In this document: positions 43,618 to 45,400 of the stretch, piece by piece
Position numbering within the stretch: position 1 is the first letter of the stretch
How the letters are laid out: each line of letters begins with the position of its first letter
Source of the DNA: Escherichia coli
GTDB taxonomy: Bacteria > Pseudomonadota > Gammaproteobacteria > Enterobacterales > Enterobacteriaceae
Reading direction: 5' to 3' (one strand)
DNA length: 64,000 bases
Assembly: GCF_050920415.1 (NCBI RefSeq)
Contig: NZ_CP169309.1
Notes under the pieces: model-generated
What the model saw: only the letters and a program-made list of their open reading frames with translations
What the model was told of the DNA's origin: nothing
Database searches by the model: none
Made by a program: the position numbers and the translations under genes

Positions 43618-44151
43618 TTATCTGTCAATTCCCCAGCACGCCAGTGCACTTTCCTGATCTCGCCGGGATACCTGACCGTAGCAGTTATTTGAGCGGATAC
43701 GGCAGTCCCTGCCACCGTCCTTAATCCACCAGCGAATCGCTTCGCAGGCACCTTTTCGATCACCTGCATTAATTCGTTTATAAAACGTCGACGGGAAACA
43801 CTTACCGGGGCCAATGTTATACGGACAGAATGACGCGATCCCCGCTTTCTGGGGTTCGGTCAGCGGCACTTTGATGTTTTTCTCCACCCATGCCAGCGCC
43901 TTATCACGTTCAATAGCGTTAACCTGGTCGCATTTTTCCTTCGATAACTTCATACCCGGGACGACAGGCTTACCATCCACTCGGGTGGCACCGCGGCAGA
44001 TGGTCCATATGCCGGAACCATCGCGGTATGCCGTTGTGTGGTTACCTTCCTTTTCATCCAGAAACTGGTCGAGAATGTCAGGCGCAGGCGCACCGGCGGC
44101 AATCAGTGCCAGAACGGCAGCCGACAGGCCGTATCTGATTTTTGCGTTCAT
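43618..44151 (-). CDS. SAR endolysin (lysozyme R, phage 21 type)
   Basis: 177 aa; N-terminal hydrophobic signal-anchor-release segment (LSAAVLALIAAGAPAP) then T4-lysozyme-like catalytic E-D-T region. Confidence 0.85.
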   Translation of the reverse strand: MNAKIRYGLSAAVLALIAAGAPAPDILDQFLDEKEGNHTTAYRDGSGIWTICRGATRVDGKPVVPGMKLSKEKCDQVNAIERDKALAWVEKNIKVPLTEPQKAGIASFCPYNIGPGKCFPSTFYKRINAGDRKGACEAIRWWIKDGGRDCRIRSNNCYGQVSRRDQESALACWGIDR

Positions 44152-44193
44152 GGATATTTATCAGGATTTATCGGCAACAGATAACGTGCCTGC

Positions 44194-45180
44194 TTATATT
44201 CGCCCTTTAAGATAAGCCAGACCCGGCTGGACCCAGCCATCAGGCTCTTTCTTAAAGGGTGGAGTATTGAAATCCCGAAGAAGGGCCTTCCTCACCTCAG
44301 CATCCCTGTCAGCACCACTGGCCAGCGCTTCAATCTCAGCAGCCACCTGCAGATATCCCATGCAACGACCAATGCGCTTCATCAGCCTCTGCTTTTTATT
44401 GTTCTTCAGGTAATCAATGGCAAATTCAATAAGCTCCTCACTGTGCTTATGCGATGGCGGCGTTACTTTTCCATCTTCGCGGATCGTGATATTCCAGTCA
44501 TCACCGGACACAACAAAGGATGGCCGGTTACACTCCCGTTCCTGGTTTTTGTCCGACACAGGCACAGTAAAATCACTTTCATGCCCGTTTTTACGACAGT
44601 CCTCGCCACGTACCGCAGCAAATACCGACAAGGCATACTCCTTTGCTCTCGCTTCATAGTCGCTGAATGTTGTTTTCGGATCGTAGTCTTCCCTGTACAT
44701 AACCGACAGAACTTCCTCATGATCAATATGAACACTGACCACGCTGCCTATTCTTTTGGTCAGCACAAGACGAGAATCTTCCCCGACTTTCACTCCTGGT
44801 GTCACACGTGCCGGAAGCTCCACATTAACCATCGCGCTCTGCACATCATCAGGCGCATTTTTTACCGGTTCGTTGACCTTTTCACGCCCCGGGTAAGTGG
44901 CGATTTTTTCCGGCATTGTCCATGAAGAAACATTCTGAAAGCCACATCGCGCAGTCCCTTCGCGTAATCCGAGAGCCGCATCCATGAAAAACTGCTTCGC
45001 CTGTTTTTTCGCCTCAGATTCGTAAAATTCCAGCGTGGCACCTTCAGTACGGTCAAGACTAATCGCCACATCTGGCGACAACAACGACGGCTGCCCGGCA
45101 ATTTCCAGTGCCACAGTAACAGTTATCTTATCCGGGTAATTATTTATCCCTTTTACAACCAGTTCATATTTTTTATTCAT
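44194..45180 (-). CDS. Hypothetical protein inserted between holin and endolysin
   Basis: 328-aa ORF, no recognisable motif, tightly packed in the lysis cassette. Confidence 0.6.
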   Translation of the reverse strand: MNKKYELVVKGINNYPDKITVTVALEIAGQPSLLSPDVAISLDRTEGATLEFYESEAKKQAKQFFMDAALGLREGTARCGFQNVSSWTMPEKIATYPGREKVNEPVKNAPDDVQSAMVNVELPARVTPGVKVGEDSRLVLTKRIGSVVSVHIDHEEVLSVMYREDYDPKTTFSDYEARAKEYALSVFAAVRGEDCRKNGHESDFTVPVSDKNQERECNRPSFVVSGDDWNITIREDGKVTPPSHKHSEELIEFAIDYLKNNKKQRLMKRIGRCMGYLQVAAEIEALASGADRDAEVRKALLRDFNTPPFKKEPDGWVQPGLAYLKGRI

Positions 45181-45184
45181 CGCT

Positions 45185-45400
45185 TTACTCTCCCCGCGCC
45201 GCCTTACGACGGTCCTCTCTGATTTTGAAATACAGGTTGGTCAGATACGTCAGCAGGCCAAACAGCAGACTCCCCAGCACACCTATTGCCACCCACTGGG
45301 ACGGAGAGACTTTGTCCAGCAGCTGCAGTAACCAGTATCCCGTCCCCACCGCTGACGTGGTGTATGACACACCTGTTGTGATTTTTTCCATCTGGTACAT
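45185..45400 (-). CDS. Pinholin (S21-like) with dual-start motif
   Basis: 71 aa from MYQMEK... (Met1 and Met4); two TM domains; close to phage 21 S as recalled; the longer ORF to 45508 is probably not used. Confidence 0.8.

Follow-up and report, generated by a model that had tools for sequence, protein, structure and literature searches.

Introduction

In the pinholin S21 of phage 21 the first transmembrane domain (TMD1) flips out of the membrane, while the second (TMD2) forms heptameric pores of nanometre size (~2 nm) that leave the cell intact (bioRxiv 10.1101/2021.04.20.440580). A glycine zipper has been described in S21 TMD2 (PMC9025707), and a positive charge at the N-terminus retards the release of TMD1 (PMC9025707; bioRxiv 10.1101/2021.04.20.440580). 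S21 has two forms, the holin S21-68 and the antiholin S21-71. A holin of this family needs an endolysin partner that is itself exported, because a nanometre-sized pinhole cannot pass a folded lysozyme, and endolysins of the signal-anchor-release (SAR) type such as R21 supply that partner. Here we compare these systems with three adjacent genes, S, X and R, that occupy positions 43618-45400 on the minus strand of a 64,000 nucleotide stretch of Escherichia coli DNA (contig NZ_CP169309.1 of assembly GCF_050920415.1), which is referred to below as the window.

The pinholin and SAR endolysin system is already known, and is textbook material, for Shiga toxin (Stx) phages. Two genomic surveys report a predicted SAR endolysin and pinholin next to stx in nearly all Stx phages (PMC8136144; PMC10462455). 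In the first of these, Pinto et al. 2021 analysed 279 Stx prophages and found the predicted pair adjacent to stx in approximately 99% of them (PMC8136144), while a classification based on TCDB places the holins of Stx2a phages among the P21-family pinholins (PMC10462455). Bulk release of Stx is tied to phage lysis because the toxin has no secretion signal for crossing the outer membrane. The classical argument for this link rests on stx lying immediately upstream of S, R and Rz, and is credited to Neely and Friedman (1998) and to Wagner (2002). The Stx2g prophage described below shows the same stx-S-R-Rz arrangement with an unusually short spacer between stxB and S, and it leaves the established picture unchanged.

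The lysis cassette

S, X and R, together with the downstream genes ant, Rz and Rz1, very probably make up the lysis cassette in the late operon of a lambdoid, Stx2g-converting E. coli prophage, of the phage 21 and 933W type, as judged by comparison of their sequences with those systems. The interval is the exact span from the stop codon of R (43618) to the start codon of S (45400), and all three genes in it lie on the minus strand in the order S-X-R:

45400..45185, minus strand: S, 71 amino acids, class II holin of the phage 21 S (pinholin) family
45180..44194, minus strand: X, 328 amino acids, DUF1327 family
44152..44193, minus strand: X-R spacer, 42 nucleotides
44151..43618, minus strand: R, 177 amino acids, GH24 endolysin

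A sequence-only reading of this interval had proposed a pinholin with a SAR endolysin, and the homology of S to S21 and 933W S, and of R to R21 and 933W R, bears this out. That reading was right to place a holin and an endolysin here but overlooked the third gene, X, which fills 987 of the 1783 bases.

The family matches of both lysis proteins lie far beyond chance. S matches the profile PF04971, “Bacteriophage P21 holin S”, at E=1e-32 (112.3 bits against a cut-off of 26, with 63 of the 64 profile positions covered) as well as the PHROG holin families phrog_9876 and phrog_20, while R matches PF00959 at E=4e-25 (88.9 bits) and the endolysin family phrog_7. Direct alignment to S21 and R21, which the sequence-only reading had put forward as one way to judge its proposal, gave 76% identity without gaps over all 71 residues for S, and 32% identity over the catalytic domain for R with the catalytic triad at the same numbering. 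The S21 sequence used was confirmed by exact look-up as UniProt HOLIN_BPP21, and that of R21 was verified against PDB entry 3HDE. Among Stx phages the proteins are closer still: S is 94% identical to 933W S, and 94-96% identical when Stx2 phage 86 is considered together with 933W, and for R the 933W counterpart is 95% identical.

The holin

S had been described as a 71 residue protein with two transmembrane segments. It has 71 codons, two uncharged hydrophobic stretches and the match to PF04971, all of which agree with that description. The segments were judged by Kyte-Doolittle (KD) hydropathy arithmetic and not by a trained predictor:

45317..45382, minus strand: S TMD1, residues 7-28, uncharged and weakly hydrophobic, counterpart of the releasable S21 TMD1
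45227..45295, minus strand: S TMD2, residues 36-58, hydrophobic, mean KD 1.59

S resembles S21 in its length of 71 residues, in having methionines at positions 1 and 4, and in its weakly hydrophobic first transmembrane domain. The mean KD value of TMD1 is 0.75 in S and 0.52 in S21, and glycine, alanine, serine and threonine together make up 50% and 55% of its residues respectively; the two TMD1 sequences nevertheless differ at 9 of 22 positions. Residues 31-58 of S form an uncharged and hydrophobic stretch whose best 19-residue window has a KD value of 1.83. Within TMD2 the residues G40, G43, S44, G48, T51, T54 and N55 are invariant between S and S21; these small and polar residues include the motif G40-x3-S44-x3-G48, which resembles a glycine zipper, and those of the polar face. 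The basic C-terminal tail of S, from K59 to E71, is that of S21 except for an exchange of arginine and lysine at position 61.

A longer open reading frame for S, starting from a TTG at 45508 and encoding 107 amino acids, was rejected because the sequence does not become similar to that of 933W until about 35 nucleotides before the ATG, and because a hairpin followed by a run of U falls inside the would-be extension.

The endolysin

The N-terminus of R consists of MNAKIR, in which K4 and R6 are the basic residues, followed by a segment without charge; the catalytic motif begins shortly after it:

44080..44133, minus strand: predicted SAR segment of R, YGLSAAVLALIAAGAPAP, residues 7-24, from hydropathy, composition and a scan with cleavage rules
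44002..44049, minus strand: catalytic motif E35-x8-D44-x5-T50 of R, residues 35-50, from alignment to R21

The relatives of R in the Protein Data Bank (PDB) include 3HDE and 3HDF (R21) and 4ZPU (RrrD of DLP12). R shares with R21 and RrrD the GH24 fold family and an N-terminal segment that follows basic residues, is uncharged, is rich in glycine, alanine, serine and threonine, and has no cysteine. In the HMMER alignment to 3HDE the residues E35, D44 and T50 of R are invariant with R21 and carry identical numbers. The segment YGLSAAVLALIAAGAPAP (Y7 to P24) contains 18 uncharged residues with a mean KD value of 1.48, and 56% of them are glycine, alanine, serine or threonine, compared with 62% in R21. 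The best 19-residue window of R has a KD value of 1.74, which is above the classical threshold of 1.6.

Soluble GH24 endolysins of known structure begin to align with R at about its residue 31-35 and no earlier; on their own side the alignment opens at residue 12 in P22 lysozyme (2ANV) and at residue 21 in 7M5I. R21 aligns to R at the same numbering, residue 30 to residue 30. The N-terminal extension of R is therefore genuine and equivalent to that of R21. The proposal that the endolysin begins with a SAR-type segment is in keeping with these data, since the 18 uncharged residues are missing from the soluble GH24 structures. R thus has the features of an exported partner that a P21-family holin would require.

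Residues 1-51 of R contain no cysteine, the first being C52. A SAR segment that lacks cysteine, combined with the glutamate, aspartate and threonine triad, suggests that R would be activated in the noncovalent manner of R21 and not in that of phage P1 Lyz. According to Xu et al. 2005, P1 Lyz reportedly depends on two cysteines, one within the SAR domain and one that is catalytic and replaces an aspartate. R is unlike it in lacking cysteine from residues 1-51 and in having Asp44, and the PDB matches of R at E<=0.001 did not include P1 Lyz. What R would have in common with P1 Lyz is the general principle, set out in a passage of PMC9025707, of a lysozyme that is exported by Sec, tethered to the membrane and released on depolarisation.

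The catalytic body of R contains eight cysteines (52, 74, 109, 118, 136, 150, 157 and 172), compared with four in R21, and a cysteine-containing insertion of 7 residues relative to R21 lies near its C-terminus. The additional cysteines might reflect disulfides formed in the periplasm.

The surrounding prophage

The toxin genes in the window are 99.3% identical to loci annotated as Stx2g in complete E. coli genomes, and approximately 94% identical to those of stx2a phages. The window therefore contains a Stx2g-converting lambdoid prophage of E. coli. Q, the tRNA genes and stxAB lie upstream of S in the same orientation as the lysis genes; ant sits between R and Rz, and terminase genes follow downstream, beyond Rz and Rz1:

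48710..48000, minus strand: Q (PF06323)
47293-47540, minus strand: three tRNA genes between Q and stxA (ARAGORN)
47204..46245, minus strand: stx2g A (PF00161)
46232..45963, minus strand: stx2g B (PF02258)
45697-45888, minus strand: match to the STnc100 prophage small RNA family (Rfam RF02076, 121 bits against a gathering score of 47)
45436-45467, minus strand: second terminator-like hairpin followed by a run of U (fold z = -3.6), about 35 nucleotides upstream of the S start
42781..43347, minus strand: ant, antirepressor-like (P22_AR_N, PF10547 E=2e-42; phrog_524)
42160..42627, minus strand: Rz, i-spanin (PF03245 E=6e-39; phrog_13)
42201..42407, minus strand: Rz1, o-spanin lipoprotein (PF06085 E=3e-21; phrog_3198)

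Rz1 is nested within Rz in another frame and has the lipobox VSAC. The likely start of Rz is Met14 of the listed open reading frame, as the phrog_13 alignment begins at residue 14. The ant product gives an additional weak match to ORF11CD3 besides P22_AR_N. The anticodons of the three tRNA genes are CAT (called Met by ARAGORN and annotated as Ile in related records), TCG and TCT (Arg), and the set is the usual tRNA trio of Stx phages.

The spacer between stxB and S (45401-45962) is 562 bp long and lacks the esterase gene nanS-p. One survey puts the typical spacing in Stx phages at 3-3.5 kb, and the short layout is common to the closest Stx2g prophages. The STnc100 match lies within this spacer, and its 3′ end is a GC-rich hairpin with a run of U at approximately 45702-45728 (fold z = -2.5). 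In 933W a run of U is found at the place that matches the hairpin upstream of S.

The locus is like that of 933W in the order of stxAB followed by S, R, ant and Rz/Rz1, and in the MYQM start of S. It differs in the toxin, which is Stx2a in 933W and Stx2g here, and in the distance between stxB and S, which is approximately 3.1 kb in 933W, with nanS-p and other genes, and 562 bp here. The third difference is at the end of S: in 933W R starts 4 nucleotides after S, whereas here X fills that slot and R starts 42 nucleotides after X.

Predicted course of lysis

The identity, order and intactness of the genes, their sequence features and their homology were established directly, while every functional step that follows is taken over by homology from S21 and R21. 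After induction, transcription from pR′ antiterminated by Q would cross the tRNA genes, stx2gAB and the terminator-like hairpins and continue into S-X-R-ant-Rz/Rz1, and X would be co-transcribed with the lysis genes. S would build up in the inner membrane, into which its two helices are inserted. R would be exported by Sec and remain tethered to the inner membrane through its weakly hydrophobic N-terminal SAR segment, enzymatically restrained. At a critical concentration of S, TMD1 would leave the bilayer and TMD2 would oligomerise into pinholes of nanometre scale, collapsing the proton-motive force. The depolarisation would free the SAR segment of R, which would refold into an active muramidase by the noncovalent, R21-type route and degrade the murein everywhere at once. 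Rz and Rz1 would then disrupt the outer membrane, so that virions and periplasmic Stx2g are released.

Spanins are also required for lysis by phages of Gram-negative hosts. The sequence-only reading had concluded that toxin release would depend on activation of the endolysin by the pinholin. Release by way of a pinholin-triggered endolysin is the standard expectation for such a cassette, but “depend” is too strong, because SAR endolysins also release without a holin, the pinholin setting the timing, and because the spanins form part of the pathway as well. A passage of PMC9025707 describes SAR endolysins alone as releasing spontaneously with slow lysis, and the pinholin as making lysis timed and abrupt.

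Alternative explanations

Several features of the locus weigh against the assignment to a phage 21 type pinholin and SAR endolysin cassette, and the first concerns the start of S. The gene begins with ATG TAC CAG ATG, so that Met1 and Met4 are in frame and a form of 68 amino acids could be made from the ATG of codon 4 at 45391. The dual starts claimed in the sequence-only reading are thus both present, but the extension between them is Met-Tyr-Gln, with neither lysine nor arginine, while that of S21 is Met-Lys-Ser. Lys2 of S21-71 is the extra positive charge credited with its antiholin role. Because MYQ replaces MKS this charge is absent from S, and the holin and antiholin pair may not operate as it does in phage 21, to judge from the residues present; a minor possibility is that Stx-phage pinholins, given their lysine-free MYQ extension, run without an antiholin. 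The RNA around the S start folds no better than shuffled sequence (z = 0.1), and a regulatory hairpin of the type found at the start of other dual-start holins was dropped from consideration on this basis.

The second concerns the start of R. The ATG of X lies 4 nucleotides past the S stop codon, behind GGGGAGAG at the 3′ end of S. This is the ribosome-binding context that serves R in 933W, and R has lost it here to X. No Shine-Dalgarno-like purine run was found in the 42 nucleotide X-R spacer. The last 26 nucleotides of that spacer (CCGATAAATCCTGATAAATATCC plus the ATG) recur without change in two other places, Stx2 phage 86 and the Stx2g prophage of strain MFDS1022581.

The third concerns the N-terminus of R. 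Its hydrophobic stretch has 18 residues compared with 24 in R21, and it ends in Pro-Ala-Pro, unlike the segments of R21 and RrrD. The position-independent Hessa sum is +5.4 for R and +0.8 for R21, so that the segment of R is much less favourable. Being shorter and less hydrophobic than that of R21, it also has the look of an h-region from a cleavable signal peptide.

This resemblance leads to the best of the alternatives, which we nevertheless regard as improbable: that R begins with an ordinary cleavable Sec signal peptide, is secreted and active on export, and is controlled from elsewhere. The n-h-c layout of MNAKIR, hydrophobic core and GAPAP would suit such a peptide, as would the short core (about 13-15 of the 18 uncharged residues) and its Hessa sum. 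Small residues stand at -3 and -1 of several sites, and the change P22S in 933W R creates an AGA|S site. Against cleavage, both Ala-x-Ala boxes of R (AGA|P and APA|P) have proline at +1, although weaker sites within the hydrophobic core might be cut. Since proline at +1 blocks signal peptidase I, the prolines after the two boxes argue against processing of R by this enzyme. The content of glycine, alanine, serine and threonine is SAR-like (56%, with 62% in R21), and a constitutively active periplasmic lysozyme would make a conserved pinholin partner pointless. Moreover, the Young laboratory, which defined this class of enzymes, treats the 95% identical 933W R as one of them: a table of its plasmids and strains, which cites the 2011 dissertation of Kuty, enters the protein as “phage 933W SAR endolysin” (PMC9239132).

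An exported, membrane-tethered R paired with a pinholin S is thus the preferred reading of the two genes. Whether the cassette is live is a separate matter, and it is very unlikely that it is the silent remnant of a defective prophage from which Stx2g is released by another route. Many lambdoid prophages of E. coli are cryptic, two terminator-like hairpins stand between stxB and S, and R has no recognisable Shine-Dalgarno sequence. However, intact open reading frames with full-length family matches are present for all of Q, stxAB, S, X, R, ant, Rz, Rz1 and terminase, and other Stx phages, among them phage 86, which has been isolated, share the conserved R leader without a Shine-Dalgarno sequence. 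The inducible 933W likewise has hairpins upstream of S, and polymerase modified by Q would read through such structures.

It is extremely improbable that S is a canonical large-hole holin which frees R from the cytoplasm, the hydrophobic N-terminus of R being incidental: the NCBI annotation, “class II holin family protein” and nothing further, would allow it, but S has its 76% gapless identity to S21 with the pinhole-lining motif of TMD2 invariant, S21 itself makes nanometre pores that leave the cell intact (bioRxiv 10.1101/2021.04.20.440580), and the TCDB-based classification puts the S proteins of Stx phages among the pinholins (PMC10462455).

The gene between holin and endolysin

X is composed of an N-terminal DUF1327/YdfR module (residues 1-74; PF07041, E=3e-35), a variable middle, and a conserved C-terminal module (approximately residues 215-328), and it matches phrog_1085, a family of unknown function, over its whole length (E=5e-113). 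No transmembrane or hydrophobic segment was found in X by hydropathy, which describes a soluble protein. The DUF1327/YdfR genes of BP-4795, Stx2 phage 86 and Qin resemble X in having the PF07041 domain at the N-terminus and in lying directly after S. They differ in that the modules of X occur elsewhere as separate genes or in other combinations, in proteins of 75-333 amino acids, while X is a fusion of 328 amino acids; the C-terminal module also occurs alone in proteins of 213 amino acids. Alignment shows a mosaic family whose members, as relatives of X, are confined to E. coli and its close kin.

Searches for a function of X gave no match in NCBIfam or PADLOC, and Pfam at E<=10 added noise only. 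A profile of 24 sequences compared with PDB sequences returned nothing below E=0.88. The AlphaFold2 model of X is poor, with a mean predicted local distance difference test score (pLDDT) of 54 and a predicted template modelling score (pTM) of 0.29, and is confident for the first 70 or so residues only; Foldseek found no match for it in BFVD at E<=0.001.

In the annotated phages and genomes examined, members of the X family follow a PF04971 holin directly and are themselves followed by a PF00959 lysozyme, and the same order of holin, X family member and lysozyme is found in all 8 of 8 loci of two distant members. Because X always stands between a P21-type holin and a SAR endolysin, and because it has captured the ribosome-binding site that R uses in 933W, so that R is left with a conserved leader lacking a Shine-Dalgarno sequence, X might be a dedicated modulator of pinholin and SAR endolysin lysis, acting on its timing, on endolysin dosage or on SAR release, and not a passenger. 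We consider this unlikely. The DUF1327/YdfR family to which X belongs is widespread at the junction of holin and endolysin.

Distribution of the cassette

Open reading frames on the opposite strand within X and R (for example 44443..44925, plus strand) are unsupported and were treated as shadows of the genes on the minus strand. Among complete E. coli genomes none matched the interval from end to end, the best showing 92-94% identity over 83-88% of it. The S, X and R proteins are each present as an exact entry in public E. coli assemblies, all of them drafts, and the exact S protein is found on approximately 994 contigs.

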